A DNA stretch of 32,000 bases from Cupriavidus necator (GCF_016127575.1 NZ_CP066019.1:60001-92000); one strand, 5' to 3'; positions 10,344 to 28,797 are shown, numbered from the stretch's first letter. Notes: generated from the sequence alone by a model not told the origin. Program-made: numbers and translations.

Positions 10344-10412
10344 CATACGCGAAGTGATGGTCCAGTGAACAATACTGCGCCCGCCATCGGAAATGCCGGA
10401 GACAACCCTGAG

Positions 10413-11768: not shown

Positions 11769-11850
11769 CGCAGTACCGGCAACGCCCAACCGGCCGCTGC
11801 CGTGATCGGCACGGCTGGCTGATCTGATAAAGACACTGCAGGAGACAACG

Positions 11851-12873: not shown

Positions 12874-12974
12874 AGCCATCGCACTGAACCCCAGACACTG
12901 CAGCACAGAACGCGCCGGGCATGCACGCATAGCGTGCCGCGCCGGCGCTCGCGTCATCGACAGGAGACAACAGC

Positions 12975-13973: not shown

Positions 13974-14106
13974 TCTGGGCTCGCGGGCCGTAGCTGGTTC
14001 TTCGCAGATTTGCGGGGTGTTTTTGTTGTTGCCAAGGGCGACAACCGACCGCATGGCAACAAGCCAAAGCAGGGCTTCCCAAATCTAGCGAAGACCCCCC
14101 AATAAG

Positions 14107-14131
14107 AAAAAAGCCCCGCGCACTGCGGGGC
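14107..14131 (-). terminator. rho-independent terminator downstream of the aldehyde dehydrogenase gene
   Basis: The minus strand reads GCCCCGC-agtgc-GCGGGGC followed by TTTTTT. The stem is 14113-14119 / 14125-14131 and the A6 run on the plus strand is 14107-14112. It starts 9 nt after the stop. Confidence 0.75.
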
Positions 14132-14139
14132 CTGCGCGA

Positions 14140-15666
14140 TCAACCCTTCACCGCTTCCGGCAACAACGCCTGCGGCAGGTTCTGATAACAAACCGGCCGC
14201 AAGAACCGGTCAATCGCCGTCGCTCCGACTGAAGTCGAACGCGCATCCGAAGTCGCCGGGAACGGCCCGCCATGCACCATCGCATAGGCAACCTCGACCC
14301 CAGTCGGGTAGCCATTGCACAGCACCCGCCCGGCCTTGCGTTCCAGCACCGGCAGCAGGCGCCGCGCGGCCGCGTGGTCGGCATCGTCGAGCTGCATCGT
14401 CGCCGTCAGCTGGCCTTCAAGCTGTCGCGCCACCGCCAGCATCTCTTCGAGATCGCGGCATACCACCAGCACCGTCGACGGCCCGAACACCTCGGCCTGC
14501 ATCCGGTGATCCGCCATGAACTGCGCCGCGGTGGTCTCGAACATTACTGGCCGCGCCTGGTTGGCCCCGTTGCCGTCGACGCCATCGCCAATGCGTTGCA
14601 GGCCGTCGAGCGACGACAGCTGCGCCACGCCTTGCTCAAAGGCGGCATGGATTCCGGGCGTCAGCATGGTCGCCGCCGGCTTGCCTTGCAGCGCGCCGAG
14701 CGCCGCGGCGCGGAACTTGTCGAGCGCGGGGCCTTCAATGCCGATCACCAGCCCGGGGTTGGTACAGAACTGGCCGACGCCCATCACCAGCGAATCCACC
14801 AGCTGGCGGCCGATGTCCTCGCCGCGCGCATCGAGCGCCGCGGGCAGCAGGAACACCGGATTGATGCTGCTCATCTCCGCATACACCGGGATCGGCTGCG
14901 GGCGGCGCTGGGCGGCCTGCATCAGCGCCAGGCCGCCGGCGCGCGAGCCGGTGAAGCCCACCGCCTGGATTGCCGGATGCGTGACCAGTGCCGTGCCGAT
15001 GGCATTGCCCGCCCCGACCAGCAGCGAGAACACGCCTTCGGGCAGGCCCGCGTCCTGCACGGCCTGCTGGATCACGCGCCCCACCAGTTCCGACGTGCCC
15101 AGGTGCGCCGGGTGCGCCTTGACCACGACCGGGCAGCCCGCGGCCAGCGCCGAGGCAGTGTCGCCGCCGGCCACGGAGAACGCCAGCGGGAAGTTGCTGG
15201 CGCCGAACACTGCTACCGGACCGATGGCGATGCGCTGCATGCGCAGGTCCGGGCGCGGCGGGTTGCGCTCGGGCAGTGCGGGGTCGAAGGTGGCCTGCTG
15301 CCAGCGGCCTTCGCGCAGCACGGTGGCGAACAGGCGCAGCTGGCCGGCGGTGCGGCCGCGCTCGCCCTGCAGGCGCGCGACCGGCAGCGCGCTTTCCAGG
15401 TGGGCGCGTTCGATCAGCGTGTCGCCGAGCGCCTCGATGCCGGTGGCGATGGCTTCGAGCAAGGCCGCGCGCTGCTCTGGCGTGGTGTTGCGGTAGGTGT
15501 CGAAAGCGGCTTCGGCCAGCGCACAGGCGCGCTCGACCTCGGCCTGGCCGCCGCCATGGAAGTCAGGGCCCAGGGCTTCGCCGGTGGCGGGATTGATGGC
15601 CTGCAGCAGGGCTTCGGTGCCGCGCACGGCTTGCGCGCCGATCAGCATGTCGCCGGTGATGTGCAT
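14140..15666 (-). CDS. alpha-ketoglutarate-semialdehyde (2,5-dioxovalerate) dehydrogenase, ALDH superfamily
   Basis: 508 aa. Motifs present: [42 protein letters not shown] (catalytic Glu region) and GQFCTNPG (catalytic Cys). It lies downstream of kdgD, as in D-glucarate/galactarate pathways. SD AAGGA is present. Confidence 0.85.
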
Positions 15667-15700
15667 GGAAGGATTCCTTGTCAGCGTTTGGAACGGGAAC

Positions 15701-15732
15701 GCCGGCCGGAGGGCAAGTGCCCCGCGGCCGGC
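15701..15732 (-). other. intercistronic GC-rich stem-loop between kdgD and the dehydrogenase gene
   Basis: GCCGGCCG...CGGCCGGC is an 8-bp perfect stem, extended by 4 further pairs with bulges. No T-tract follows. It may act as an mRNA processing or stability element. Confidence 0.35.
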
Positions 15733-15769
15733 CTGTCGATATGCAATGCGAGGGCGGCTTGCTTACCGC

Positions 15770-16684
15770 TTACTGCGGGCCGAGCTTGTTGATCAGCGCG
15801 CCCAGCATCTCCATCTCCTCGCCGGTCAGGTCGGTCAGCGGCGCGCGCACCGGGCCGCCGTCGTGGCCGACCAGTCGGGCGCCGGCCTTGACGATGCTCA
15901 CGGCATAGCCGGCCTTGCGGTTGCGGATGGCCAGGTAGGGCAGGAAGAAGTTGTCGAGCAGGCGGCCCACGGTGTCGTGGTCATCCGCGGCGATGGCGCG
16001 GTAGAAGTCCATCGCGGTCTCGGGGATGAAGTTGAACACTGCCGACGAATACACCGGCACGCCCAGCGCCTTGTAGGCCGTGGCATAGACCTCGGCCGTG
16101 GGCAGGCCGCCGAGGTAGGAGAAGCGGTCGCCCAGCTTGCGGCGGATGCTGACCATGGCCTCGATGTCGCCCACGCCGTCCTTGAAGCCGACCAGGTTGG
16201 GGCAGCGCTCGGCCAGGCGCGCGAGTTGCGTCGCATCCAGCTTCGAGTTGGCGCGGTTGTAGACGATCACGCCGATATCGACCGACTTGCAGACCTGCTC
16301 CACGTGGGCGGCGATGCCGTCCTGGCTGGCTTCGGTCAGGTAGTGCGGCAGCAACAGCACGCCGGCCGCGCCCAGGCGCTGGGCTTCCTGCGCGTAGGCG
16401 ATGGCGGTGCGGGTCGGGCCGCCGGCGCCGGCCAGGATCGGCACCTTGCCGGCGCAGGTGCGCACGGCGGTGTCGACCACGGCCGAGTAGTCCTGCGGTG
16501 TCAGTGAGAAGAACTCGCCGGTGCCGCCCGCAGCGAACAGCGCGGTGGCGCCGTAGGGGGCCAGCCACTCCAGCCGCGCGGCGTAGGACTGCGGTGCGAA
16601 GTCGCCCTGGGCGTCGAAGTCGGTGATGGGGAAGGACAGCAGGCCTTCGGAGACGATTTGCTTGAGTTCGTTGGGTGCGAGCAT
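15770..16684 (-). CDS. kdgD: 5-dehydro-4-deoxyglucarate dehydratase
   Basis: 304 aa from ATG 16684 with an [35 protein letters not shown]...[29 protein letters not shown] is the conserved KdgD N-terminus (DapA/NAL fold). The TTG 16795 extension is rejected because it overlaps the promoter and operator. Confidence 0.9.
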
Positions 16685-16757
16685 TGCGGCAATCCTGAGC
16701 GGGCCAGTGGCCCCGGGTGGCAGTGGCGGCTGACTGCGGCGGTGCAGATCATCCGAG

Positions 16758-16777
16758 TTATCAGTCATCGTATGACA
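16758..16777. promoter_or_regulatory. second copy of the GTCAT-N3-ATGAC operator (TTATCaGTCATcgtATGACa) upstream of kdgD
   Basis: It shares TTATCAGTCAT and ATGACA with the gudD site. It lies 74-93 nt upstream of the kdgD ATG and overlaps the candidate -10. Confidence 0.55.
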
Positions 16778-16795
16778 AGGCTCTGGCGAAGGCAA
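16767..16795 (-). promoter_or_regulatory. sigma70-type promoter candidate for kdgD (TTGCCT-17 nt-TACGAT on the minus strand)
   Basis: -35 at 16790-16795 and -10 at 16767-16772, read on the minus strand. The -10 is embedded in the operator palindrome. Confidence 0.35.
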
Positions 16796-17095
16796 TAGGG
16801 CTTGTGATCATTCGGGGTTAACCGGGATGCGGCCGGCGTTTTCGCTGGAAAGCCCTGCCGGCGAGCAAAAAGGGACAGAAACATGCCGTCTGGGGCACTT
16901 CAAGCATGGATGGCGGCCGTCGTACCGTGGGTGAGCTCCGGTGGGGCAGGCATGTAATGTTGTAGGACAACGTAAGTCGGAGTGGTTTCTGCCAGCGCGC
17001 CTGCCACTCAGGAAATTTGAAACACCCATGCAAAGCTGCCGGTGCACGGGCCCCCGGCGACTGGCACACTGGCATCCTGGACTGACGGGGAGAAC

Positions 17096-18076
17096 ATGGT
17101 GGGAGAGTTACAGGCCTTGCTGGAAAACCACGGGCTGATGCTGGTGTTCCTGAACGTGCTGGTCGAGCAGGCCGGGCTGCCGGTGCCGGCCTACCCGATG
17201 CTGTTCGTCGCCGGCGCGCTGGGCATGCAGGAGACCGGGCCGTCGATCGGCGCGGTGCTGGCTGCGGTGATCTTTGCCTGCCTGATTGCCGATACCGGCT
17301 GGTACTTCGCCGGGCGCCGGCTGGGGCAGCCGATGCTGCGCACGATCTGCCGGGTATCGATTTCGCAGGACTCGTGCATCCGCCAGACCCAGTCGCTCTA
17401 CCTGCGCGTGGGGCCGCGCTCGCTGGTGATCGCCAAGCTGCTGCCCGGTGCCGGGGCCTTGTCCACCGCGATGGCGGGCATGACCGGCACGCCGTTGCCG
17501 GTGTTCCTGTTCTATGACGCCATCGGCGCGCTGGTCTGGGCTGGCAGCGCCTTGCTGATCGGCGTGGTGTTCAGTGATTTTATCGATGCCATCCTGGAGG
17601 CGTTCAGCGCCTACGGGCATATGGCCGTGGTGGGGCTGTTGGTGGCGTTCGCGCTGTTCCTGGCGTGGCGCTGGTGGCGCCGCTTCCGGCTGCTGCGCCG
17701 CACGCGGCGCGTGCCGCGCATGACGGTGGATGAGCTGGAAGCGCGCCGGCTCGCCGGCAGCCTGCCGGTGGTGATCGACGTGCGCGCCCACGGGGACACG
17801 CCGATGGAGCGCATCCCCGGCTCGGTGGTGCTCGACATGCAGGGCGCGCTGGACAGCCTGGACGCGTTAGGCGTGCCGCACGCCGGGGCCGACATCGTGG
17901 TCTATTGCGCCTGCCCCAATGAACTGTCCGCCGCGCTGCTGGCCGAGCGCCTGCGCGTGGCCGGCTACCCGAAGACCTGGGCGCTGGCCGGCGGCTTCGA
18001 CGAATGGAAGCGGCGCCACGGCGGCACCGCCCCGACCGAGGCGGCCAACCAGCCAGGGCCGGCCGAAGCCGCCTGA
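17096..18076 (+). CDS. DedA/VTT-family membrane protein fused to a C-terminal rhodanese domain
   Basis: 326 aa from ATG 17096 with SD GGGGAG. The N-terminal part is DedA-like: LVFLNVLVEQAGLPVPAYPMLFVAGAL...ADTGWYFAGRRLG...RSLVIAKLLPG. A TM helix and an RRFRLLRRTRR linker follow. The rhodanese region is VVIDVRAH...ERIPGSV...IVVYCACPNELSAALLAERLRVAGYP.TWALAGGFDEW, with the active-site-loop Cys at TGC 17906-17908. Confidence 0.8.
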   Translation: MVGELQALLENHGLMLVFLNVLVEQAGLPVPAYPMLFVAGALGMQETGPSIGAVLAAVIFACLIADTGWYFAGRRLGQPMLRTICRVSISQDSCIRQTQSLYLRVGPRSLVIAKLLPGAGALSTAMAGMTGTPLPVFLFYDAIGALVWAGSALLIGVVFSDFIDAILEAFSAYGHMAVVGLLVAFALFLAWRWWRRFRLLRRTRRVPRMTVDELEARRLAGSLPVVIDVRAHGDTPMERIPGSVVLDMQGALDSLDALGVPHAGADIVVYCACPNELSAALLAERLRVAGYPKTWALAGGFDEWKRRHGGTAPTEAANQPGPAEAA

Positions 18077-18101
18077 ACCTGCCAGGCCGCCGGCGCTGCG
18101 C

Positions 18102-19058
18102 TCAGCGCTTGCCCGCGGTCTGGAATACCGACAGGTCCGGGTAGACCGCGCGGATCTTCTCCCATTCGGCGGCATTGAAGAACTGACACTTGCCGGCGCC
18201 GAAGCGCTTGGACACCTCCACGCAGAAGCGCACGGCTTCAGCGATGTCGATCTCATGGTTGGCCGAGGTCGCGCTGCCCGACACCACCGACCGCGCCGTC
18301 ACCGCCACGCCGACCACCGGCGCCCGGGTGGCCACGTGCGGCTGCATGATGCTGTTGAAGTGGTACAGGCCGTTGTGGTAAGGCGTGATGTCCTGCTGCG
18401 AGATCGGGAAGGTCACCGCCGGGCAGCCGGTGGTGGACTCCATGGTCGCCACCAGGTCCGGCGCCACGCGCAGGATGTAGCCCTGCATCGCCGTCGGCGA
18501 AATCGCAAAGCCGCGGTGCTTGATGATGCTGTTGCCCTTGGAGGCATCGATCGACAGGATCGCGTCCATCTCCGGCAGCACCTGGTAGTCGTTCATGGTG
18601 TCGGACGAGACCGGCATGCCCATGAACGGCACCGGGTCGTGCGGCTGCATCGAGACATTGGTCGACAGGTGCGTGGTCACGATCACGTCGCCCGCCAGGT
18701 GGTCGTCGCGCGCCTTCATCTGCGCCAGCTTGAGCGCCACCGCCAGGCAGCCGATCGGGCCGTCGGCGTCAGACACCAGCCCCACCAGTTCCGGGCGCGC
18801 GCCAATCGCGCCGTTGCGGCCGATCACGCCCAGCGTCGGCGCACTGCCGCCGCTACGCTTGCCCGTGGTGCCGGGGATCACGATGGTGATGAAGTCGGTG
18901 GTGTTGGCCGTGTTCTCGGGCGGGGCGTTGTGGATCGTGGTCACTTCCACGCTCACGCCGGCGCCGGCATAGGGCGCGAACAGTTCGCTGACGACCGCAC
19001 CGTTGGCGTGCGGGCTGTCCAGGGCTTCATGAATGACCAGCGTCTGCTGCAGGGCCAT
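18102..19058 (-). CDS. conserved protein of unknown function (probably DUF1177 family)
   Basis: 318 aa from ATG 19058, with GGAGA 5 nt upstream. The protein is soluble, with no signal peptide or TM helix, and GC3 bias is good. It resembles the roughly 300-aa DUF1177 proteins that I recall co-occurring with OPT transporters. The family name is unverified. Confidence 0.55.
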   Translation of the reverse strand: MALQQTLVIHEALDSPHANGAVVSELFAPYAGAGVSVEVTTIHNAPPENTANTTDFITIVIPGTTGKRSGGSAPTLGVIGRNGAIGARPELVGLVSDADGPIGCLAVALKLAQMKARDDHLAGDVIVTTHLSTNVSMQPHDPVPFMGMPVSSDTMNDYQVLPEMDAILSIDASKGNSIIKHRGFAISPTAMQGYILRVAPDLVATMESTTGCPAVTFPISQQDITPYHNGLYHFNSIMQPHVATRAPVVGVAVTARSVVSGSATSANHEIDIAEAVRFCVEVSKRFGAGKCQFFNAAEWEKIRAVYPDLSVFQTAGKR

Positions 19059-19077
19059 GGCTTTCTCCAAAGGATGT

Positions 19078-19104
19078 GCCATGCCCGCTCGGCGCGGGCA
19101 TGGC
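19078..19104 (-). other. perfect 11-bp stem-loop between the porin and DUF1177 cistrons
   Basis: GCCATGCCCGC-tcggc-GCGGGCATGGC. It begins 13 nt after the porin stop and ends 20 nt before the DUF1177 ATG. No T-tract follows, so it may be an attenuator or mRNA-stability element. Confidence 0.45.
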
Positions 19105-19116
19105 GTCTACGAAAAG

Positions 19117-20277
19117 TCAGAACTGGTGACGCAGGCCGGCCATGACCGTGGTCTGGTTGTCGCGCCCGTCCAGCGGCTTGCCGCTGCCGCCGGTCCAGTT
19201 GGTGGTGTTGTTGCCGAACAGGCCCGACCAGCCGCCGCGCACCCAGTCATAGGCCACCGCCAGGTAGGCATCGGTGCGCTTGCTGAACGCATAGCCGGCC
19301 ACGCCGTATGCCGTGGTGCGGTTGCCGCTGAAGTTGTCGGCGCGGGTGCGGTTGTGCATCATGCTGGCGGTCAGCGTGACGTTGCCCGGGACGGCGTAGT
19401 TGGCGCCCAGCGTGAAGAAGTCGTCGCGCCGGCTGCTGCCGAAGACCGAGTTGATGGCGGCGCGGTTGGTGGCCGTGGCGGCGGTCGACATGCTGGTGAT
19501 GGTGGCCGTGTCGGTGCCGCCCTTCGATGAATCGAAGGCGGCGTCGCGGTCGCTGTAGATGTAGTTGGCAAACAGGTTGGCGCGTCCGACCGCGGCCTTC
19601 AGGCCGGCCATGTAGATGCGCGCGGCGCGGCTCTGGCTGTCGCGGGTCTGCTGGAAGTCGCCGATGGCGGTGATCGGGCCGGCGGCGTACTTCAGGCCCA
19701 GCGACATCGACGAGGTCGCCTTGCTGTTGCCCGGGGTTTCGCCCAGCGCGTATTCGGCGATGACGGACACCGGGCCGAAGTTGCCGGTATAGCTGACGGC
19801 ATTGTCATAGCGCTGGCCGGTCAGGTAAACCATCCAGGAGTTCGACGGCGCCGCGCCCACGCCGAGCGGATCGACGTAGTACAGCATGGTGTTGGCCGTG
19901 GTGTACTGCCGGCCCAGTGCCAGATCGCCCCACTGGTTGCCGATCTTCACGTAGGCCTGGCGCCCGAACAGCTGGCCCTGCTGGTCCAGCCTGCCGGTGT
20001 CGGCCAGGAAGCCGTTTTCCAGCACGAAGCCGGCTTTCACGCCGCCGCCCAGGTCCTCGGTGCCCTTCAGGCCGAAGCGGCTGCCCGACAGGAAGCCTTC
20101 GCCGCCCTGCTGCAGCCCGATCTGGGCATCGCCCGCCGGGTTCGAATGGGTCTGGTAGGTAAGCGCGGTGTCGATCACGCCGTACAGCGTCACCCCGGAC
20201 CGCGCCATCGCGGCGGCCGGCAGGCCCAGCAGCAACGGCAGTGCCAGGCGGGCGGCGTGGCGAATGGTGTGGCTCAT
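19117..20277 (-). CDS. outer-membrane porin (Burkholderiales OmpC-like / Porin_4 type), embedded in the peptide-utilisation cluster
   Basis: 386 aa from ATG 20277 with SD GGAGGAGA. Signal peptide ends ...LPAAAMA/RSG. Motifs present: GVTLYGVIDT, SRFGLKGTEDLGGG and FGRQAYVKIG..WGDLALGRQYT. The C-terminus is ...AGLRHQF. Confidence 0.9.
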   Translation of the reverse strand: MSHTIRHAARLALPLLLGLPAAAMARSGVTLYGVIDTALTYQTHSNPAGDAQIGLQQGGEGFLSGSRFGLKGTEDLGGGVKAGFVLENGFLADTGRLDQQGQLFGRQAYVKIGNQWGDLALGRQYTTANTMLYYVDPLGVGAAPSNSWMVYLTGQRYDNAVSYTGNFGPVSVIAEYALGETPGNSKATSSMSLGLKYAAGPITAIGDFQQTRDSQSRAARIYMAGLKAAVGRANLFANYIYSDRDAAFDSSKGGTDTATITSMSTAATATNRAAINSVFGSSRRDDFFTLGANYAVPGNVTLTASMMHNRTRADNFSGNRTTAYGVAGYAFSKRTDAYLAVAYDWVRGGWSGLFGNNTTNWTGGSGKPLDGRDNQTTVMAGLRHQF

Positions 20278-20411
20278 GTTGTTTTCTCCTCCAAAAGGCA
20301 AAAGGGGGCCCGCGCGGGCGGCACTGCGCGGCCCGCGGGGCGGTTTTCTCTTTGTTGTGCCCGGGACCGGCCCGGGTCAGTGCGTCAGCGGCTCAGGGCA
20401 GTGCCGCCGGC

Positions 20412-21167
20412 TCAGGCAGCAAATCCCGGCCAGTCCTGCATTCCGGCCGGACCGGTGATCTGCGACAGCGGGAAGATCTCGCCCTCGCGAATCGTTTCGA
20501 CCTTGCCTTCGGCCGGAAACCACAGCGCATGGCGCTCGCCCAGCACGGTGCCGCGGGTGCCGTCCGAGAACAGCGCCGAACCCTCCGGCAGCGCAAACAC
20601 CTGCTCCGGCGCGTTGATGTGCAGGAACTCGGCCAGGCGCTCTTCGCGGCTTTCGCCGTTGTGGCCGGCGGGCTTGCCGCTGATGAAGTGCGGGTTGATC
20701 TGGAACGGCACCAGCCCCAGCGCGCGCAGCGACGGCGGCTGCACGATGGGCATGTCGTTGGTGGTGCGGATGGTCGGGCAGGCGACGTTGCTGCCGGCGC
20801 TCCAGCCCACGTATGGCGTGCCCGCGCGCACCCTGGCGCGGATTGCGTCGACGATGCCGGCGTCGTACATGCGCTTGAGCAGCGCAAAGGTGTTGCCGCC
20901 GCCCACCGCGATGGCCTCGGCCTGCTCCACGGCGCGCAGCGGATCGGCGCTGTGGTGGATCGATTCGAGCGCGTAGCCCAGCGTCTCGAACACCGGCTTG
21001 ACCATGCCTTCATAGGTGTCGAAGCTGAAGGTCACGCCGGCGAACGGCACGAACAGCACCTTGCGCGGCTCGCGCCTGAGCAGCGTGTGGATCTGCTCGC
21101 CGGCGTGCTCGAGGTAGCCGAGGTTGTCCTTGCGCGAGCTGCTCATCAGGAGGATGCGTTGGGTCAT
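20412..21167 (-). CDS. pepE: peptidase S51, dipeptidase E-like (alpha-aspartyl dipeptidase)
   Basis: 251 aa. Motifs: ILLMSSS...LEH, AIAVGGGNTFALL, nucleophile elbow YVGWSAGSNVA and FQINPHF (His), as in enteric PepE. It carries about 25 extra residues at the C-terminus. Confidence 0.8.
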   Translation of the reverse strand: MTQRILLMSSSRKDNLGYLEHAGEQIHTLLRREPRKVLFVPFAGVTFSFDTYEGMVKPVFETLGYALESIHHSADPLRAVEQAEAIAVGGGNTFALLKRMYDAGIVDAIRARVRAGTPYVGWSAGSNVACPTIRTTNDMPIVQPPSLRALGLVPFQINPHFISGKPAGHNGESREERLAEFLHINAPEQVFALPEGSALFSDGTRGTVLGERHALWFPAEGKVETIREGEIFPLSQITGPAGMQDWPGFAA

Positions 21168-21211
21168 GTCTTGGTTTCCGTCAGGAGAGTCTGGTGAAGT
21201 TCAATGCGCGA

Positions 21212-22405
21212 TCAGGCGATCGCGGCGCGGATCAGCGCGGCGACGCGGTCGATCTCTTCATGCGTGTTGAAGTAGTGCAGCGAGACGCGCGCCATGGTGG
21301 ACACGCCATGGCGCGCCAGGATGGCGTCGGCCATGAAGTTGCCGGCCTCGATGATGCATTGCTGCGTTTCCAGCGCGGCGACGATGCGCGCCGGGTCCAC
21401 GCCGCGCACATTGAACGGCACGATGCCGATGCGGTTGGCCACGTCGGCCGGGCCGTACAGCTCGAAGCCGGGGGTCGACGAGAACTTCGCCACCGCGTAC
21501 TCGGTCAGGTCGCGCACACGCGCTTCGATGGCGTCGATGCCGATGGCGGCGGCGTAATCGATGGCGGTGCCCATGCCGAGGATCGCCGGCACGATCGGGC
21601 AGCCAGCCTCGAAGCGCCTGGCGCCAGCGACAAGGGACAGCGCGCCCGTGGCACGGTCATAGGCGCCGTTCCACCAGCCCACCAGCGCGGGCTCGACCTG
21701 CTCGATCAGCGCGCGGCGCACATACAGGAAGCCCGAGCCCTCGGTCGCGCGCAGCGCCTTGCGGCCGCAGCCTGCCAGGAAATCGCAGTCCAGCTCGGCC
21801 ACGTCCGAGCGCAGCATGCCCACGCTCTGTGCCGCATTGACCAGCGACAGCACGCCATGGCGGCGCGCCAGCGCGCAGATCTGCGCGGCCGGCTGCACCG
21901 CACCCGTGGAATTGGGCAGGTGCGAGAAGGTGAGCAGGCGCGTGCGCGAGGTCACGGCGGCCTCGAACGCCGCGGGCGACAGCAGTCCTTCGGCATTGGC
22001 CGCGACCATCTTCACGACGATGCCGTGCGATTGCTCCAGCCGGCGCCAGGGCAGCAGGTTGCTCAGCATCTCGGTGTCAGCCACCAGCACTTCGTCACCG
22101 GCCTTCCAGGCGATGCCGCGCGCGACGATCGAGATGCTCTCGGTGGCGTTCTTGGTGAAGGCGACTTCGTCGGCGGCGCAGTTGAGCAGTCCGGCCAGCT
22201 TGCCGCGCACCGCTTCCACGCGCGCATAGGTCTCTTTGCGGAAGGCCGGCAGGTAGATGCCGACGTGGCCGGTATCGAGCAGGTAGCTGCGCACGGTATC
22301 GAGCACCGCGTCGGGCGGCAACGAGGCCGCGGCGGTGTCGAGATAGATGGTGGAGGCCGTCAGCGGGGTGTCGGCGCGGATCGCCTGGATGGCTTGGATA
22401 TCCAT
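21212..22405 (-). CDS. class V aminotransferase-fold PLP enzyme, cysteine-desulfurase-like but lacking the catalytic Cys
   Basis: 397 aa from ATG 22405. FSHLPNSTGAVQP...LVNAAQSVG...LDCDFLAGCGRKAL aligns to SufS HVSNVLGT...DGAQA...LDCDFYVFSGHKLYG, placing the PLP Lys at K216. The C-terminal IIEAGNFMADAIL...ARVSLHYFNTHEEIDRV aligns to SufS VRTGHHCAMPL...CRASLAMYNTHEEVDRL, with Met in place of the Cys. Confidence 0.8.
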   Translation of the reverse strand: MDIQAIQAIRADTPLTASTIYLDTAAASLPPDAVLDTVRSYLLDTGHVGIYLPAFRKETYARVEAVRGKLAGLLNCAADEVAFTKNATESISIVARGIAWKAGDEVLVADTEMLSNLLPWRRLEQSHGIVVKMVAANAEGLLSPAAFEAAVTSRTRLLTFSHLPNSTGAVQPAAQICALARRHGVLSLVNAAQSVGMLRSDVAELDCDFLAGCGRKALRATEGSGFLYVRRALIEQVEPALVGWWNGAYDRATGALSLVAGARRFEAGCPIVPAILGMGTAIDYAAAIGIDAIEARVRDLTEYAVAKFSSTPGFELYGPADVANRIGIVPFNVRGVDPARIVAALETQQCIIEAGNFMADAILARHGVSTMARVSLHYFNTHEEIDRVAALIRAAIA

Positions 22406-22429
22406 GGAACGTCTCGGGTAATGACAGGC

Positions 22430-22450
22430 GGGACGCGGCGACCGCGCCCC
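22430..22450 (-). other. stem-loop between the OPT and PLP-enzyme cistrons
   Basis: GGGACGCGG-cga-CCGCGCCCC forms a 9-bp stem with one A.C mismatch and a 3-nt loop, in the 67-nt spacer. Confidence 0.3.
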
Positions 22451-22472
22451 GAGGTAAGACTCAGTTGCGCAC

Positions 22473-24080
22473 TTACTTGCGCAGCTTGGTGACGGAGCCG
22501 AAGAAGCTGAACAGGGCGTCGCCGGCAATCACGCCGCCGGCGAAGGCGCTCATCTCGGCCACGTGCTTGTCGCCGCGCAGGCGCTGCAGCACGAAGCGGA
22601 TCGCGAGGCCTGCCAGCACTGCCCAGCCGGCCAGCGGCGAGGCAATCAGCATGCCGGTGGAGAGCAGGATGCCAAGCTGGCGCCTGGAGCCGCCGATCAG
22701 CTGCAGCAGCGCGCCGGGGATGGCCCAGATCACCAGGTTGCGGGCAATCTCCGCCGACGAGCCCGCCTTGATCGAGGCCGCGTAGACGCGGTCCACCGGC
22801 GGGATCATGTTCTGCGCGAAGAAGGTGCCGTGGAACACCAGCACTACCATCGCGGCCACGGCAAAGCCGATCATCGCGGCCAGGAACTGCTGCTTGCGCC
22901 CGGCCAGCTCGGCCTCCATGTCGCGGCCTTCGCCGCGCAGCAGGTAGCCGGTCTTGAGGTCGTAGCCCATGTCGGCAAAGGCCGGGCCGGTGGCGGCGGA
23001 GAAACCCACCAGCACCGCCAGCGCCGTCGGCGGGAAGCCGATCAGGATGCCGATGGTCAGCGTGATCAGCGCTACCGCGAAGGCCGGGAACCAGCCCGAA
23101 TGCATCGCCGCGATGCCGACGATCAGCTCATGCACATAGGCGGCAAAGGCGGCATAGAGCACGAACACCACCAGCATGCCCAGCGACATGTCCGAGACAT
23201 GGCCGGCCAGCACCGAGATCAGCAGCGCAATCGCCAGGTAGATCAGGAAGCCGCCCGACAGGATGCGGCTGGCGCGCGAGGCCGGGACTTCGATGGTGCA
23301 CGTGTCCGCGGCCGGGGCATGGCGCGCGCGGCGGATCTCATTGGCGACCTGGAACAGCGCGACGATGCCCGCGCCGATCATCAGCCCGTGCGGGATATAG
23401 GCCTTGGCGATGTCGATGCCGGTCAGCGCCACCGAATAGCCGCGCACCAGCAGGCCAATGCCGAACATGGTCAGTGCCGCCAGGTTGCCCAGGAAGGCCG
23501 CGCCGAACGCGGACATCGGCACGCCCAGCCAGGCGCCGCCCACGCCCACGGCAATGCCCAGCCCCAGGAACGCGGCCTTGCGCCCGCCGCGGTCGCCAGC
23601 CCAGATGGCCTCGGCCGTGGCGATGCCGGCCGGCCAGGTGCCGGTGGCGGGAAAGATCCTGCTGCCGAAGAGGAAGTACAGCATGGCGCCGTCAACGAAC
23701 ATGGCGATCACCGCGCCGATCAGCATCGGCGTGGCCAGTTCCGGCATGCCCATCGCGTATGGCACGCCGATCGGGATCATCAGCGAGTTGGCGGCGCCGA
23801 AGGTGGCCGACGAGATTGCCGTCTGCACCAGGTTCTGCCGCTCCAGCACGCGGAAGCGCCGCGTGATCTCCAGCGGGATGCGCGAGAACACGATCGCGAT
23901 CAGCGCGCCGATGATCGAGGTGTTGGCCGAGATCCCCAGCGACACGATCAGCTGCATGCCGATCATGGCGCCGAACACCGACAGCCCCACGGAGACCAGC
24001 AGCAGCAAGGGCTCCATGAAGCGTGTCCGTGTTGCAGGCTGCGCCGCCATCGGCGCGTTCAGTTGTGTTGGCATGGTCAT
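22473..24080 (-). CDS. OPT-superfamily oligopeptide transporter (inner membrane)
   Basis: 535 aa. The protein is Gly-rich and polytopic, with roughly 14 hydrophobic helices spanning its whole length. It resembles bacterial OPT/YSL-type transporters, a call made from memory. SD GGGGAG lies upstream of ATG 24080. Confidence 0.65.
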   Translation of the reverse strand: MTMPTQLNAPMAAQPATRTRFMEPLLLLVSVGLSVFGAMIGMQLIVSLGISANTSIIGALIAIVFSRIPLEITRRFRVLERQNLVQTAISSATFGAANSLMIPIGVPYAMGMPELATPMLIGAVIAMFVDGAMLYFLFGSRIFPATGTWPAGIATAEAIWAGDRGGRKAAFLGLGIAVGVGGAWLGVPMSAFGAAFLGNLAALTMFGIGLLVRGYSVALTGIDIAKAYIPHGLMIGAGIVALFQVANEIRRARHAPAADTCTIEVPASRASRILSGGFLIYLAIALLISVLAGHVSDMSLGMLVVFVLYAAFAAYVHELIVGIAAMHSGWFPAFAVALITLTIGILIGFPPTALAVLVGFSAATGPAFADMGYDLKTGYLLRGEGRDMEAELAGRKQQFLAAMIGFAVAAMVVLVFHGTFFAQNMIPPVDRVYAASIKAGSSAEIARNLVIWAIPGALLQLIGGSRRQLGILLSTGMLIASPLAGWAVLAGLAIRFVLQRLRGDKHVAEMSAFAGGVIAGDALFSFFGSVTKLRK

Positions 24081-24143
24081 TTGTCCACTGCTCCCCGTAG
24101 TGTTGTCTGGTTTTGTCTGTTGTATGTGATGCCTTGCGCGCGC

Positions 24144-24857
24144 TCAGCGCATGAAACCCGCCACCGGGCCGATGGTGTTGCGCGCGGTGCGCAGCGCCTC
24201 CAGCAAGCGCGGCACAGCTTCAGGCGTCAGGCGCTGCAGCGGGCCGGCGATGGCCAGCGATCCCACCACCGCCCGGGTGTCGCGGTGGCGCAGCGGCAGC
24301 GCCAGCCCGGCCACCGTGGCGGCGGATTCCTCGCAGGTGTAGGCCCAGCCGTCGGCGCGGATCTGCGCCAGCCGTGCTTCCGGCTCGGGCGCGTCGCCCG
24401 TTACCTGGCGCCGGAACGCTTCCGGCTGGAATGCCAGGATGGCCTTGGCGTGCGCGCCCGCGTCCAGCGAGAAGCGCTGGCCCACTTCGATCGAAAAGCG
24501 CAGCTGGTGCTGGCTCTGGGCGATATCCGTGCACAAGCCCTCGCCACCGTCCAGCCACGACAGGAACACGGTCTCGCCGCATTCGCGCGCCAGCGCTTCC
24601 AGCGCCGGTTGCACCACCTCGGCCGGCGAAAACGTCTTGCGCATCACTTGTCCCAGCTCGAACCAGCGCAACCCCAGGCCGTAGCGGCCAAGCGCGTCCT
24701 GCACCAGGAAGCCGTTGGCGGCAAAGGTCGCCAGCGCGCGGTGCACCACGGCGTGGTGCACGCCGCTGTAGCGCGCCAGTTCGCGCACGCCCCAGCTGGG
24801 CTGGCGGGCGGTGAAGTGGGTCAACAGCGCCAGGGCGCCGTCCAGGGTCTTGAGCAT
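24144..24857 (-). CDS. IclR-family transcriptional regulator (copy 1)
   Basis: 237 aa. N-terminal wHTH LKTLDGALALLTHFTARQPSWGVRELARYSGVHHAVVHRALATFAANGFLVQD plus an IclR effector domain (GETVFLSWLDG...RFSIEVGQRFSLDAGAHAKAILAF...VAGLALPL...SLAIAGP). It is about 75% identical in protein sequence to copy 2. Confidence 0.9.
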   Translation of the reverse strand: MLKTLDGALALLTHFTARQPSWGVRELARYSGVHHAVVHRALATFAANGFLVQDALGRYGLGLRWFELGQVMRKTFSPAEVVQPALEALARECGETVFLSWLDGGEGLCTDIAQSQHQLRFSIEVGQRFSLDAGAHAKAILAFQPEAFRRQVTGDAPEPEARLAQIRADGWAYTCEESAATVAGLALPLRHRDTRAVVGSLAIAGPLQRLTPEAVPRLLEALRTARNTIGPVAGFMR

Positions 24858-24882
24858 GGCGGGTGGTTGCGTCGACTGTTTG

Positions 24883-24919
24883 TGTCTCTATATAAGAGAC
24901 AGCGTCTCTGATACAGAGA
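24883..24919. promoter_or_regulatory. two adjacent inverted repeats sharing GTCTCT/AGAGAC half-sites (candidate IclR operator)
   Basis: IR1 is TGTCTCT-atata-AGAGACA (24883-24901). IR2 is TCTCTG-ata-CAGAGA (24905-24919). They sit in an AT-rich patch 26-62 bp upstream of the IclR-1 ATG, in the spacer shared with the divergent patatin-like gene. Confidence 0.45.
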
Positions 24920-25060
24920 AATGCTAGGCTTGGTCCCGGCTCTCAACAATCAGGGTTAACGTGGGGCCGGCTGGCCGCGCCGGGCGAATGCCGGCGGCGG
25001 CAACGGCGGAGCGCCGCCGCCTATACTTGGCGCAGACCGACTGTTACCGGGAGGACGCGC

Positions 25061-27838
25061 ATGGCCGCGGAACACCACGGAACCGGCGGATCCGGCGACG
25101 AGGCCACCCGCATCGCCCAGCGCCGCCGCCAGCTCGGCATTGCGCCGCGCGCCGGCGATGGCCAGCGCAACTGGGCCCTGGCACTGTCCGGCGGCGGCAT
25201 CCGCAGCGCCACCTTCTGCCTGGGCGTGATGCAGGCGATGGCGGGCACCGCGATGCCCGCCAAGGCGGCAGCGCCGGCCCCCGCGCCGGAAGCCGCGACG
25301 CCGGCGGCCGCCGCCGCGGCGCAGACCGTGCCGGGCCTGGCCTCGCTGCTGGCGCAGTTCGACTACCTCTCCACCGTCAGCGGCGGCGGCTACCTCGGCG
25401 CCTTCTTCGTCAGCCTGTTCGTGCCCGGCCGCCTGCGTCGGGGCGCGGGCCCGGTCCAGGCCGCCACCGACGCCTATCACACGCTGCAATGCGAGCCGCC
25501 GGGGCGCATCCATACCTCGGTGTCCTATGCCGCGGACCCCGGCCGCGGCGCGGTCGCATGGCTGCGCGAGAACGGCCGCTACCTGTCGCCCACCGGTGCC
25601 GGCGACAACCTCTATGCCGCCGCGCTGGTGGTGCGCAACTGGCTGGCCATGCATTTCGTGATCGGCAGCGCGCTGCTGGTGCTGCTGGCTGTGCTGGCGC
25701 TCGGGCAACACATCGCGGTGGGGGTTTCCTACGGATTGGGGCGCTATGAGATGGACCTGCTGCACGACGCGCGCCAGGCCTTCAACCAGGGCGAATGCGC
25801 GATCTGGTGGAGCACGCTGCTGTGGCTGCCGCTGGCCACCGCGCTGGCTGGCGCGGTGCCGCCCGGGCTGGCCTACTGGCTGATCTACCCGCGCGCCAAC
25901 GATCCGCAGGCGACGGCCCGCTTCCTGAGCCCCGCGCCGCTGCTCGCCACGCTGCTGGGCCTGATGCTGCTGGCCGCGGCGCGCTGGTCGGAATGGCTCG
26001 GTCCGGGGCTGGTCATCGGCAAGCTCTTTGCCGCGCTGGGCGTGCTGACGCTGCTAGGTGTGCTGTGGTGCCTGGCGCTGCTGCAGGGCGAGCCGCGCAC
26101 CGTGGCCGCCTACCGCGTGCGCGCCACGCGCGCACTGCGTGGCGCGCTGACGCTGACCCTGTGGCTGGCGGCGCTGGGCATTGCCGACACCATCGCACGC
26201 ACCGCTTACCTGTTTGCCCACCAGGCCCACCACCAGTGGGGCGCGGCGCTGCCCGCAACCGTGCTGGGCGTGCTGGTCTGGCTGGTGCGCTACGGTTCGC
26301 GCTGGCGCGACGCCGGCCGCCAGGGCAGCACCGACACGCCATGGCGCGCGCTGTGTGCCCGGCTGCCGGTATCGCTGCTGGCGGGCGCGGTGGCGGCGGT
26401 GCTGGCCCTGCTGCTGTTCGTGCTGTGGTCGTGGCTGGTGCTGTGGGTGCGCTGGGACGGGCGCGAGCCGGTCGACTGGCTGGTGTTCGGCAACGCCTAT
26501 ACCGGCCCGGCGCTGGCCACGTTCACTGTGGTGAGCCTGGTGCTGGCGCTGGTGGCGGGGCGCTTCTCCGGCTTCCTGAACCTGTCGACGCTGCAGCCGT
26601 TCTACGCGGCGCGGCTCACGCGCGCGTTCCTGGGCGCATCCAACGGGGAGCGCTTCGCGGCTCCCGACCCGAGTGCCGGCCGCGACGGCAGCCAGCGCGC
26701 CCGCTTCAGCGTGGCCGAGCCCGTGCCCGGCGACCAGCTCAGCCTGAACACCTACTACGATCCGCGCGTGCTGGCGCCGCTGCACCTGATCAACGTCACG
26801 CTGAATCTCACCGTCGACCCGGCCGAGCAACTGGTGCAGCGCGACCGCAAGGGCAAGCCGCTGTGCCTGGCGCCCGGCCCCTGCGTGGTGCTGTCCGGCG
26901 TGGCGGCGGCGATCCCGCCGGACGCCTACGCGCGCTTTACCATCGACGGCCGGGGTTGCTGCCCCGACGTTTCATGGCCGTCTTCGGGCAAACTGGCCGA
27001 ATCGCGCACGGTGGGAGATTGGATGGCGATCTCGGGCGCGGCCGTCTCCACCAGGCTGGGGCGCGCGACCACGCTGGGCACATCCATGCTGCTTGGCCTG
27101 GCGAACCTGCGTCTGGGCATATGGTGGCCGTCGTATCCGGCCAGCCACGCGCGCGAAGGCGGGCGCCGGGGCCGCGCGCGGCGCCATCCGGAACGCGCCG
27201 CGCATCCATGGCTGGCCGCGGGCATCGCGCTTTTCCGCACGCAGTACTACCTGGGCTGCGAACTGAGCGCGCGCTTCCACGGCACGCGGCGCGGCTGGCA
27301 GTACCTGTCCGATGGCGGGCATTTCGACAACACCGGCGTGTACGAGCTGCTGCGCCCGGGCCGCGATGTCTCGCTGATCGTGCTGTGTGATTGCGGGGGC
27401 GACCCCGACTACCGCTTCGGCGACCTGGCCAACCTGATCCGGCTGGCGCGCATCGACCATGGGCTGGAGATCGTGGTCGATACCGAGGCTGCCACCACGC
27501 ACCCGGTGCTGAGCCGTGTCTTCGGCGTGCCGGATGATTTCCTGCCGGGCGCGCCGACCGGCGACAAATGCGCGGTGCTGCTCAATGTCTTTCGCACCGG
27601 CCCGGAGTGCGGGGCGCCACGCGCACGCACCTGCCGCATCGTGCTGCTCAAGCCGCGGCTGGTGTCATGGGCGCCGGCCGACGTGCGCCACTACGGCGCG
27701 ACCCATCCCGCGTTTCCGCAGGAGGCCACCGGCGACCAGTTCTTCGATGAGGCGCAATGGGAGAGCTATCGCGCGCTGGGCCATGCGATCGGCCAGCGCG
27801 TGCTGGGCGGGGCCGTGGGCAAGGCGCTGCTGGTGTGA
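25061..27838 (+). CDS. patatin/cPLA2-like phospholipase with a polytopic membrane domain inserted between the catalytic Ser and Asp
   Basis: 925 aa, with SD GGGAGG 6 nt upstream of the ATG. Oxyanion motif SGGGIRS at aa 43-49. Nucleophile elbow TVSGG with Ser107 (AGC 25379-25381). About 8 hydrophobic helices at aa ~186-500. Catalytic Asp motif LSDGGHFDNTG with Asp751 (GAT 27311-27313), then LLRPGRDVSLIVLCDCGGD. The C-terminus carries FPQEATGDQFFDEAQWESYRALG. Confidence 0.8.
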   Translation: MAAEHHGTGGSGDEATRIAQRRRQLGIAPRAGDGQRNWALALSGGGIRSATFCLGVMQAMAGTAMPAKAAAPAPAPEAATPAAAAAAQTVPGLASLLAQFDYLSTVSGGGYLGAFFVSLFVPGRLRRGAGPVQAATDAYHTLQCEPPGRIHTSVSYAADPGRGAVAWLRENGRYLSPTGAGDNLYAAALVVRNWLAMHFVIGSALLVLLAVLALGQHIAVGVSYGLGRYEMDLLHDARQAFNQGECAIWWSTLLWLPLATALAGAVPPGLAYWLIYPRANDPQATARFLSPAPLLATLLGLMLLAAARWSEWLGPGLVIGKLFAALGVLTLLGVLWCLALLQGEPRTVAAYRVRATRALRGALTLTLWLAALGIADTIARTAYLFAHQAHHQWGAALPATVLGVLVWLVRYGSRWRDAGRQGSTDTPWRALCARLPVSLLAGAVAAVLALLLFVLWSWLVLWVRWDGREPVDWLVFGNAYTGPALATFTVVSLVLALVAGRFSGFLNLSTLQPFYAARLTRAFLGASNGERFAAPDPSAGRDGSQRARFSVAEPVPGDQLSLNTYYDPRVLAPLHLINVTLNLTVDPAEQLVQRDRKGKPLCLAPGPCVVLSGVAAAIPPDAYARFTIDGRGCCPDVSWPSSGKLAESRTVGDWMAISGAAVSTRLGRATTLGTSMLLGLANLRLGIWWPSYPASHAREGGRRGRARRHPERAAHPWLAAGIALFRTQYYLGCELSARFHGTRRGWQYLSDGGHFDNTGVYELLRPGRDVSLIVLCDCGGDPDYRFGDLANLIRLARIDHGLEIVVDTEAATTHPVLSRVFGVPDDFLPGAPTGDKCAVLLNVFRTGPECGAPRARTCRIVLLKPRLVSWAPADVRHYGATHPAFPQEATGDQFFDEAQWESYRALGHAIGQRVLGGAVGKALLV

Positions 27839-27850
27839 AGAGACAGCGCG

Positions 27851-28606
27851 TCAGCGCACGAAGCCGATGACGTCTTCCAGCCGGCCGCTGGCATCGCGCA
27901 GCGCCTCCAGCAGGCGCGGTACCGCGGCTTGGTCCAGCCGCTGCTGCGGCCCGGCGATGGCGACCGAGCCCACCACCGCGCTGCGGTCGCGCGACCACAG
28001 CGGCAACGCCAGGCCGGCCACGCTGGCGGCGGCTTCCTCGCGCGTATGGGCCCAGCCGCGCTCGCGCACCTCGGCCAGCTGCTGCTCGATGCGCTCGCGG
28101 TCCAGCGTCGTGTGTGGGGCGATGCGCGCCAGCCCCTGGCGGTAGACCTCATCGCGGAAGGCATCGTCCTGGAAGGCCAGCATCGCCTTGGCATGCGCGC
28201 CCGCATAGAGCGGGAAGCGCTCGCCCAGCTCGATCGAAAAGCGCAGCTGGTGCTGGCTCTGCACCAGTCCCACGCACAGGCCCTCATGGCCATCGAGCCA
28301 CGACAGGAACACGGTCTCGCCGCTTTGCGCGGCGAGCTTTTCCAGCACCGGGCGCACGATCTCGTCGGGCGAGAAGCTCTTGCGCACCACCTGTCCCAGC
28401 TCGAACAACCGCAGTCCCAGCGAATACTTGCCGGTGGCCGCGTCCTGCACCAGGAAGCCATTGGCGGCAAACGTCGCCAGCACGCGGTGCACCACGGCGT
28501 AGTGCACGCCGCTGTGCTTGGCCAGCTCGCGCACGCCCCAGGTCGGCTGGCGCACGGTGAAGTGCGTCAGCAGGGCCAGCGCACCGTCCAGTGTCTTGAG
28601 TGTCAT
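27851..28606 (-). CDS. IclR-family transcriptional regulator (copy 2)
   Basis: 251 aa from ATG 28606 with an AAGGA SD. MTLKTLDGALALLTHFTVRQPTWGVRELAKHSGVHYAVVHRVLATFAANGFLVQD... It shares exact 32-nt and 28-nt DNA runs with copy 1. It is divergent from the LLM oxidoreductase gene. Confidence 0.9.
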   Translation of the reverse strand: MTLKTLDGALALLTHFTVRQPTWGVRELAKHSGVHYAVVHRVLATFAANGFLVQDAATGKYSLGLRLFELGQVVRKSFSPDEIVRPVLEKLAAQSGETVFLSWLDGHEGLCVGLVQSQHQLRFSIELGERFPLYAGAHAKAMLAFQDDAFRDEVYRQGLARIAPHTTLDRERIEQQLAEVRERGWAHTREEAAASVAGLALPLWSRDRSAVVGSVAIAGPQQRLDQAAVPRLLEALRDASGRLEDVIGFVR

Positions 28607-28797
28607 CGCTTGTTCCTTGGCATCGGGCTGCATGGTACGGGCAAGCGCGGCGCGACTCAATCCTTCCCGCGCCCCCGTGATACCCACGCCGCCCGAAGGG
28701 CCGCGATCAGGCCGCCAGCACGATCGCGCCATGGTCTCTAAGATAGCGGGCCATACGCATTGCCCGCGTGCGGCATCGGTCGCCCGCCATCCACCAC

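Follow-up and report, generated by a model that had tools for sequence, protein, structure and literature searches.

What might six adjacent genes of Cupriavidus necator accomplish together when they encode a regulator, an inner-membrane carrier, an outer-membrane channel and three soluble proteins, one of which belongs to a family of unassigned function? The genes in question (iclR, OPT, PLP, pepE, porin and DUF1177) lie on the minus strand of a 32,000-nucleotide stretch (GCF_016127575.1, NZ_CP066019.1:60001-92000; hereafter the window), PLP denoting a protein with a pyridoxal 5′-phosphate enzyme fold. Our comparative analysis points to an IclR-controlled catabolic operon in which small peptides or peptide-like compounds would be imported via the porin and the OPT carrier and hydrolyzed in the cytoplasm, a reading to which we assign a probability of roughly 0.6. 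The substrates are probably small, Asp-containing or otherwise unusual peptides. In the proposed pathway, the porin would admit the substrate across the outer membrane (in Burkholderiales only) and the OPT transporter would carry it into the cytoplasm, where DUF1177, with a predicted dinuclear-metal exopeptidase fold (M17/M28-like), would hydrolyze a peptide or amide bond as the core enzyme. PepE could cleave resulting or co-imported N-terminal-Asp dipeptides, and the SufS-derived PLP protein may convert one released or unusual amino acid by racemization/epimerization, beta-elimination or transamination. The IclR protein would bind a GAGAC-N3-GTCTC palindrome over its own promoter and release it in the presence of substrate or product. 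An earlier sequence-only reading of the window had proposed a substrate-specific utilization locus under one regulator, and this proposal is supported because the gene order recurs in distant genera, a conserved palindrome lies upstream of iclR, and the neighbors of these genes in other genomes are almost all peptide transporters, peptidases or racemase-like enzymes.

The six genes are all co-directional and extend from position 24857 down to 18102 in high-GC (approximately 69%) Cupriavidus DNA. Their open reading frames show the codon-position GC pattern of real genes (third-position GC, 0.87 to 0.91 in all six), and their products are 88 to 98% identical to those of a chromosome 2 locus of Cupriavidus sp. 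TMH.W2 (L001). With starts at 24857, 24080, 22405, 21167, 20277 and 19058, the gaps between them are 63, 67, 44, 134 and 58 nt, exactly as the sequence-only reading had given them. All of its family calls (IclR, OPT, PLP, S51/PepE, porin and DUF1177) likewise proved right against Pfam and NCBIfam profiles; the hidden Markov model searches that it had suggested for PF03169, PF03575, PF06675 and PF00266 supported all four assignments, and what it had termed a probable DUF1177 protein is a member of that family. The start of the DUF1177 gene was placed at the ATG at 19058 rather than that at 19082 because 32 of 32 aligned homologs begin at the Met encoded at 19058, GGAGA precedes this codon, and the ATG at 19082 falls within a hairpin.

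Conservation of the neighborhood was traced with a DUF1177 alignment profile on contigs from one genome per species, and the best 80 of at least 595 matching stretches were fetched. Neighbors were counted within 7 kb and on the same strand by tblastn, with the window proteins and representatives of recurrent neighbors as queries. Eight of the 80 loci are from Cupriavidus, and the counts therefore do not represent independent events. An OPT gene was found near DUF1177 in 53 loci, usually immediately upstream, and this adjacency spanned Beta-, Gamma- and Alphaproteobacteria, Bacillota and one metagenome-assembled genome (MAG) of Acidobacteria. Either an OPT or an Opp/Dpp-type ATP-binding cassette (ABC) peptide transporter was present in 71 loci, and two of the nine exceptions were contig ends. 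Genes for PepE (29 loci), the PLP protein (11), a porin (13), NicX/M29-like proteins (13), DUF917 with S-Me-THD N and C domains (11) and M20 peptidases (5) accompanied DUF1177, and its other neighbors were peptidases or amidohydrolases (M29-like, M20, M24, S66 LD-carboxypeptidase, C15 and amidohydrolases). IclR-family genes were situated upstream of OPT in many related loci. The order IclR-OPT-PLP-S51-DUF1177 was also observed in Paracoccus fistulariae and Zobellella maritima, where it was reached via distant PLP homologs, and Brevibacillus marinus carries the order IclR-OPT-DUF917-DUF1177-AroM-M24-PLP-NicX. In a reverse test that started from the OPT clade, three of three OPT genes, from genera that the first set did not include (Thermoanaerobacterium, Desulfosporosinus and Kroppenstedtia), stood beside DUF1177, in loci carrying DUF917-DUF1177-AroM-NicX/M29-like genes. 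Recurrence across phyla places the linkage well outside what chance would produce, and the forward and reverse tests together indicate that the OPT clade and DUF1177 are reciprocally linked. The OPT-DUF1177 neighborhood that the sequence-only reading had mentioned for other proteobacteria is thus real and extends well beyond that group, and the loss of gene order in other genomes that it had named as grounds for refutation was not observed, the order being kept in distant genera.

The DUF1177 protein, which we propose as the core hydrolase, matches PF06675 along its full length (411 bits; profile positions 5 to 272 of 272) and has no signal peptide. It is strikingly conserved: the Cupriavidus and Paenibacillus sequences share 55 to 57% identity, and some 70 columns of the alignment are invariant. 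At least 7,495 matches occur among protein clusters at 90% identity, and an exhaustive profile search yielded no more than 519 clusters at the 50% identity level, fragmentary sequences accounting for many of them; a full-text literature search returned no paper on the function of the family. As the sequence-only reading had suggested, AlphaFold2 models were searched with Foldseek. Two were used, for the window protein and for a Paenibacillus homolog, each with a predicted local distance difference test score of 83 and a predicted template-modeling (TM) score of 0.88. The window model matched M17 leucyl aminopeptidases, and the Paenibacillus model matched M17 and, equally well, the M28 enzymes of Streptomyces griseus (SGAP) and Vibrio/Aeromonas (AAP), with E-values of about 1e-8, a probability of 1.0, TM-scores of 0.47 to 0.56 and 8 to 12% identity. 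For the M17 catalytic domain, both models gave E-values of 6e-9 to 1e-7 and query-normalized TM-scores of 0.49 to 0.55; the predicted fit to M28 (SGAP and AAP; TM-score, 0.47 to 0.56) was as good. The predicted structures therefore resemble both M17 (PepA, PepB) and M28 enzymes in superposing at a TM-score of about 0.5. The invariant residues D105, D107, H138, D179, E215, H241 and E277 (numbered on a 326-amino-acid open reading frame) are located at strand ends or helix starts, and the acidic and His residues among them may constitute a putative metal site, as they occupy positions where ligands sit in this fold; the placement of Asp, His and Glu at strand ends would correspond to that of the metal ligands in M17 and M28. 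In contrast to M17 enzymes, DUF1177 is a single domain of about 315 amino acids without the M17 N-terminal domain. Salmonella PepB, a member of M17, cleaves N-terminal Asp peptides, as PepE does.

The inner-membrane carrier scores well above the gathering threshold of PF03169 (TC 2.A.67; 25.8), its match falling into two stretches. No NCBIfam OPT model matched at E-values up to 0.01, and no solved relative was found by sequence. A crude Kyte-Doolittle scan gave 17 partly overlapping hydrophobic windows, corresponding to some 12 or more distinct segments over the 535 residues. Identity within this OPT clade is 56 to 66% between Cupriavidus and Firmicutes, and to our knowledge no bacterial OPT transporter of the clade has a known substrate. 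OPT/YSL proteins carry metal-nicotianamine complexes in plants, and OPT/Hgt1 imports glutathione in yeast.

PepE, noted in the sequence-only reading as an S51 dipeptidase E homolog, exceeds the cutoff of the NF003642 equivalog model (319 versus 156 bits) and matches the solved aspartyl dipeptidases 7c9b and 1fy2 (E, 5e-56). Its GWSAGSN, INPHF and LPEGS motifs align with their 7c9b counterparts, leaving a Ser, His and Glu triad intact; we take the GxSAG Ser, NPH His and EG Glu to be this triad from what is known of Salmonella PepE. It thereby resembles the Salmonella and E. coli enzymes at equivalog level and in its aligned catalytic residues, whereas its gene differs from theirs in being embedded in an OPT-DUF1177 cluster, here and in 29 of the 80 loci; pepE of enterobacteria is usually discussed as a stand-alone housekeeping gene. 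The porin matched the solved porins 8wv0 and Omp32 (1e54) with E-values of 4e-20 to 5e-15, begins with a signal-peptide-like segment (LGLPAAAMA) and ends with RHQF, a terminal Phe. Porin genes occur in two arrangements, either in the pepE/DUF1177 interval or downstream of DUF1177, and porins of the latter arrangement are only 30 to 37% identical, which suggests that a porin was recruited repeatedly. The porin gene of the window looks like an insertion into an ancestral pepE-DUF1177 junction. A second Porin_4 paralog (31% identical) is located at 2654-3658.

The PLP protein aligns end to end with E. coli SufS at approximately 31% identity; among solved structures it is most closely related to SufS and CsdA, with a further match to C-DES, a cystine lyase that has no catalytic Cys (E, 4e-24). 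In common with C-DES and the group II desulfurases SufS and CsdA, it has the class V fold, the Schiff-base Lys (CGRKALR, aligned with SufS K226) and the C-terminal Arg responsible for binding the carboxylate of the substrate (MARVS). Unlike SufS and CsdA, it lacks the catalytic Cys, as the sequence-only reading had noticed: SufS RTGHHCA is replaced by EAGNFMA, and every ortholog examined has Met at the Cys position. Both His residues of SufS MEHHAN are lost as well (TEMLSN, with HH replaced by ML), Arg359 is replaced by Glu, and SufS LVDGAQ reads LVNAAQ. The ring-nitrogen Asp (D200) is lost in most members, the position holding mostly Asn, as here, Cys in Zobellella and Ser in Buttiauxella, and it is still Asp in Paracoccus. 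The protein scores below every NCBIfam cutoff (SufS, 257 versus 475 bits; CsdA, 178 versus 494 bits) and is therefore, judged from its sequence, not a cysteine desulfurase. Its gene lies within a DUF1177 cluster in every context examined, directly upstream of pepE in the proteobacterial clusters and between M24 and NicX-like genes in B. marinus, and it never adjoins sufE or sufBCD. In Cupriavidus basilensis OR16 (L007, 6509-7117), the PLP gene matches only the first 200 or so residues, reflecting a truncation, a pseudogene or an assembly problem, and the other five genes are intact.

Regulation would start at iclR, the candidate first gene of an autoregulated unit, whose product passed no NCBIfam equivalog cutoff. 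The promoter-like hexamers upstream of iclR belong to a block (GTTAACCCTGATTGTT...GCCTAGCATTT) conserved in Cupriavidus loci; their role as a promoter is putative because a sigma-70 consensus scan of positions 17800 to 25200 did not flag them and detected no promoter. Directly downstream of the hexamers is the operator-like palindrome (Table 1). Its core, GAGAC-N3-GTCTC, spans 24896-24908, and there is another GAGAC half-site, the third, at 24883-24894. This core occurs once in the window. Among the orthologous loci of Cupriavidus, Burkholderia and Caballeronia, each of the nine in which iclR is retained has exactly one copy, always 30 to 50 nt ahead of that gene, and the other 80 loci compared have none, which makes the palindrome a good phylogenetic footprint for a candidate IclR operator; we infer that IclR binds it and represses transcription. 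A scan for intrinsic terminators over the same interval (17800 to 25200) gave only two terminator-like matches, both outside the five gaps, one inside the OPT gene and one on the opposite strand at the start of iclR. An Rfam scan of the whole window returned no match and thus no riboswitch or leader. The GC-rich hairpin preceding the porin gene might terminate part of the transcripts, attenuate expression or affect mRNA stability; the evidence for it is weak because the z-score of the whole gap is only -1.1. The porin gene may be expressed at a different level from its neighbors.

Table 1. Genes of the cluster and candidate control elements, in window coordinates
Feature	Position	Strand	Length	Evidence
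IclR-family transcriptional regulator, first gene of the cluster	24144-24857	-	237 aa	PF09339, E 2.7e-10; PF01614, E 5e-22
OPT/YSL-family inner-membrane transporter	22473-24080	-	535 aa	PF03169, 88.8 bits
SufS-like class V PLP-fold protein, remodeled active site	21212-22405	-	397 aa	PF00266, E 6e-82
PepE, alpha-aspartyl dipeptidase (peptidase S51)	20412-21167	-	251 aa	PF03575, E 6e-62; NCBIfam PepE equivalog
Outer-membrane trimeric-type porin (Porin_4)	19117-20277	-	386 aa	PF13609, E 9e-44
DUF1177 protein, cytoplasmic	18102-19058	-	318 aa	PF06675, E 2e-123
Promoter-like hexamers upstream of iclR: TTGTTG (24944-24949), 17-nt spacer, TAGCAT (24921-24926)	24921-24949	-		Read from sequence
Operator-like palindrome, TCTCTGTATCAGAGAC-GCT-GTCTCTTATATAGAGA, arms matching at 14 of 16 positions	24885-24919	-	35 nt	Sequence and conservation
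GC-rich hairpin followed by T-rich CTTTTGCCTTTTGG (20291-20304), immediately before the porin ribosome-binding site GGAGGAG	20305-20342	-		Fold
Perfect 11-bp stem with 5-nt loop in the porin/DUF1177 gap, followed by GGAGA, the ribosome-binding site of DUF1177	19078-19104	-		Fold, z -2.4; no good T-tract

Several observations weigh against the catabolic peptide operon in its present form. DUF1177 differs from M17 and M28 in having no detectable sequence relationship to them: phmmer and profile searches of the PDB gave no link to a solved structure, hhalign with E. coli PepA returned a probability of 0.2, and Pfam at E-values up to 10 gave only DUF1177 for this protein, with no Peptidase_M17. 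By manual comparison, the M17 signature NTDAEGRL and the K-D-K-D-D-E-R site are not recognizable, the usual M17 ligands K270 and D275 seem to be missing, and there are possible partial look-alikes (VSDADG for YDMCGA; SIDASKGN for NTDAEGR). Because the fold matches both families and the sequence neither, DUF1177 is best described, at the level of structural models, as having the general Zn-dependent exopeptidase fold while being no demonstrable member of M17 or M28. An Asp-containing substrate is suggested solely by the presence of PepE. As the ring-nitrogen Asp is mostly lost, the PLP chemistry itself is uncertain. The porin is linked to DUF1177 in Burkholderiales only, and two hairpins flank its gene, so that transcription may be segmented. 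Finally, tblastn detected no AroM, DUF917, racemase, M29-like or ABC peptide-transporter gene elsewhere in the window, and with AroM absent, the Cupriavidus version may handle a substrate other than that of the majority form.

The last point bears on an explanation that keeps the architecture and changes the substrate to D-amino-acid-containing or cyclized peptide-like compounds, on which DUF1177 would act together with a stereo-inverting enzyme (AroM in most cases; here the PLP protein as a racemase or epimerase). Candidates would include peptidoglycan stem-peptide fragments, hydantoin- or diketopiperazine-like rings and iso- or cyclic-imide Asp peptides. AroM (PF07302), a racemase-like protein of the Asp/Glu/hydantoin-racemase superfamily, is indeed the commonest partner of DUF1177 (55 of the 80 loci), and one database protein of 532 amino acids (P0364) is a natural DUF1177-AroM fusion; two PucR-DUF1177 "fusions" (733 amino acids; P0391 and P0395) were not used, as they may be gene-calling artifacts. 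PF01177 racemase genes occur in 20 loci and LarA-like genes in 3; an AroM, Asp/Glu-racemase, LarA-like or PLP gene is found in 69, and genes for DUF917 (S-Me-THD-like) and S66 LD-carboxypeptidase lie nearby. In general PLP enzymology, replacement of the ring-nitrogen Asp by Asn, Ser or Cys, as in the PLP protein, disfavors transamination-type chemistry. The 11 PLP loci and the 55 AroM loci never overlap among the 80; this separation rests on only about five independent lineages, and the idea that the PLP protein strictly replaces AroM is weakened by B. marinus, which has both genes in one cluster. Our literature searches on DUF1177, AroM, DUF917 and the OPT-peptidase pairing yielded only a preprint on cyclodipeptide oxidases, which reports the same guild (hydantoin racemase, DUF917, AroM, OPT and ABC transporters, and peptidases) around cyclodipeptide-oxidase genes of the non-cyclodipeptide-synthase type (bioRxiv 10.1101/2023.09.25.559410). 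Against these points stand a window without AroM, DUF917 or a racemase gene and a PepE that is an ortholog of the L-alpha-Asp dipeptidase, and we regard a D-residue or cyclized substrate for this locus as rather unlikely, though well within consideration.

Much less probable is a route for scavenging sulfur or cysteine from glutathione-like or Cys-containing peptides, in which OPT would import the substrate, DUF1177 would act as a Cys-Gly dipeptidase and the PLP protein as a C-S lyase resembling C-DES. M17 Cys-Gly dipeptidases and the Cys-less C-DES act in such sulfur pathways, and the kinship of the PLP protein with SufS, CsdA and C-DES, the predicted M17-like fold of DUF1177 and a convergent DedA-rhodanese gene immediately downstream would all be accommodated. 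However, the PLP protein has lost, besides the Cys, both SufS His residues, Arg359 and mostly Asp200; an Asp-specific PepE would have no role in such a pathway; the rhodanese neighbor is conserved only in Cupriavidus; and no sulfur-metabolism genes recur in the 80 loci. Least probable of all, in our estimate, is that the genes form no functional unit or make and export a peptide-like metabolite such as a metallophore. The hairpins flanking the porin gene, the IucA/IucC siderophore genes adjoining the Paracoccus cluster and the metal chelates carried by YSL-type OPT proteins could be read in this way, but gene order is conserved across classes and phyla, no ligase, nonribosomal peptide synthetase or other synthetase gene recurs in the neighborhoods, hydrolases and ABC systems of the uptake type, with their SBP_bac_5 binding proteins, are what does recur there, and PepE is a catabolic enzyme. 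An IclR-controlled operon for peptide uptake and catabolism thus remains our preferred reading of the locus.

Beyond the window, DUF1177 may be the founding member of a hitherto unrecognized metallo-exopeptidase family. It would join a dedicated OPT clade and an enzyme that inverts stereochemistry, AroM in the majority of bacteria and the Cys-less SufS-like PLP protein in Cupriavidus and related organisms, in a widespread salvage of unusual peptides, such as those with D-, iso-Asp- or cyclized residues, that ordinary peptidases cannot handle. We offer this proposal tentatively, as a possibility that we doubt more than we believe. In place of OPT, some Bacillota MAGs (L037, L059, L076 and L013) have a LarA-like racemase, an S66 LD-carboxypeptidase and amidohydrolases next to DUF1177, a setting suggestive of D-residue peptides or cell-wall peptides as substrates. 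In Pantoea, Erwinia, Ewingella, Rahnella, Serratia and Hafnia (L025, L045, L050, L061, L068, L075 and L078), the order is aroL-yaiA-[IclR-like]-OPT-DUF1177-aroM-ppnP-rdgC-mak, and the corresponding region of E. coli K-12 (L085; 405000-412000) reads aroL-yaiA-aroM-ppnP-...-rdgC-mak. Because its enterobacterial relatives keep OPT-DUF1177 between yaiA and aroM, E. coli aroM looks like an orphaned remnant of an OPT-DUF1177-AroM module, not an aromatic-pathway gene. If true, the salvage-module proposal would also explain the long-unassigned E. coli aroM as a leftover of that module.

The genes on either side of the cluster differ from it in strand or in theme. A plus-strand gene (17042-18076), which converges on DUF1177 and ends 25 nt from it, encodes a fusion of a DedA/VTT membrane domain with a rhodanese domain at the C-terminus; this gene adjoins the cluster in Cupriavidus only. 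On the other side, a plus-strand gene for a 925-amino-acid protein (25061-27838), kept only in Cupriavidus, is transcribed divergently from iclR with its start 203 nt away and therefore shares the 203-nt region that carries the palindrome. Pfam and NCBIfam searches gave no match for this protein. Its GGGIRS, VSGGG and DGG motifs are characteristic of patatin-like Ser-Asp lipases and are separated by a long, possibly membrane-embedded hydrophobic insert. A second IclR paralog (27851-28732, minus strand), about 68% identical to the IclR of the cluster, flanks the 925-amino-acid gene on its far side, so that the pair encloses it, and adjoins a luciferase-like monooxygenase and a sigma-54 activator. 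A separate catabolic cluster at 10344-16795 comprises an enolase-superfamily (mandelate racemase/muconate-lactonizing) enzyme, two TctC-type binding proteins, an aldehyde dehydrogenase and an enzyme of the dihydrodipicolinate synthase family.

Two characterized systems invite comparison. E. coli iaaA-gsiABCD couples an isoaspartyl peptidase to a peptide/glutathione ABC importer, and B. subtilis ykfABCD serves murein-peptide recycling with an LD-carboxypeptidase, an L-Ala-D/L-Glu epimerase, an endopeptidase and an Opp ATPase. The Cupriavidus locus is similar in that one regulated cluster would join a dedicated peptide importer with peptidases, and the wider DUF1177 guild clusters also hold a stereo-inverting enzyme. 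It differs in that the importer is a secondary carrier of the OPT family and not an ABC system, and in its DUF1177 core enzyme, in-cluster porin and Cys-less SufS-like PLP protein. A utilization operon of transporter and peptidase is of a known kind, whereas the combination of an OPT carrier, DUF1177, a Cys-less SufS derivative and a porin is uncharacterized. The locus provides a testable model, with transporter, peptidase-fold enzyme, accessory enzymes and candidate operator, in the genetically tractable C. necator and its relatives. Solving it would give functions to DUF1177, AroM, the SufS-derived PLP clade and the bacterial OPT clade together, and might uncover a pathway by which soil and gut bacteria feed on unusual peptides or recycle them.

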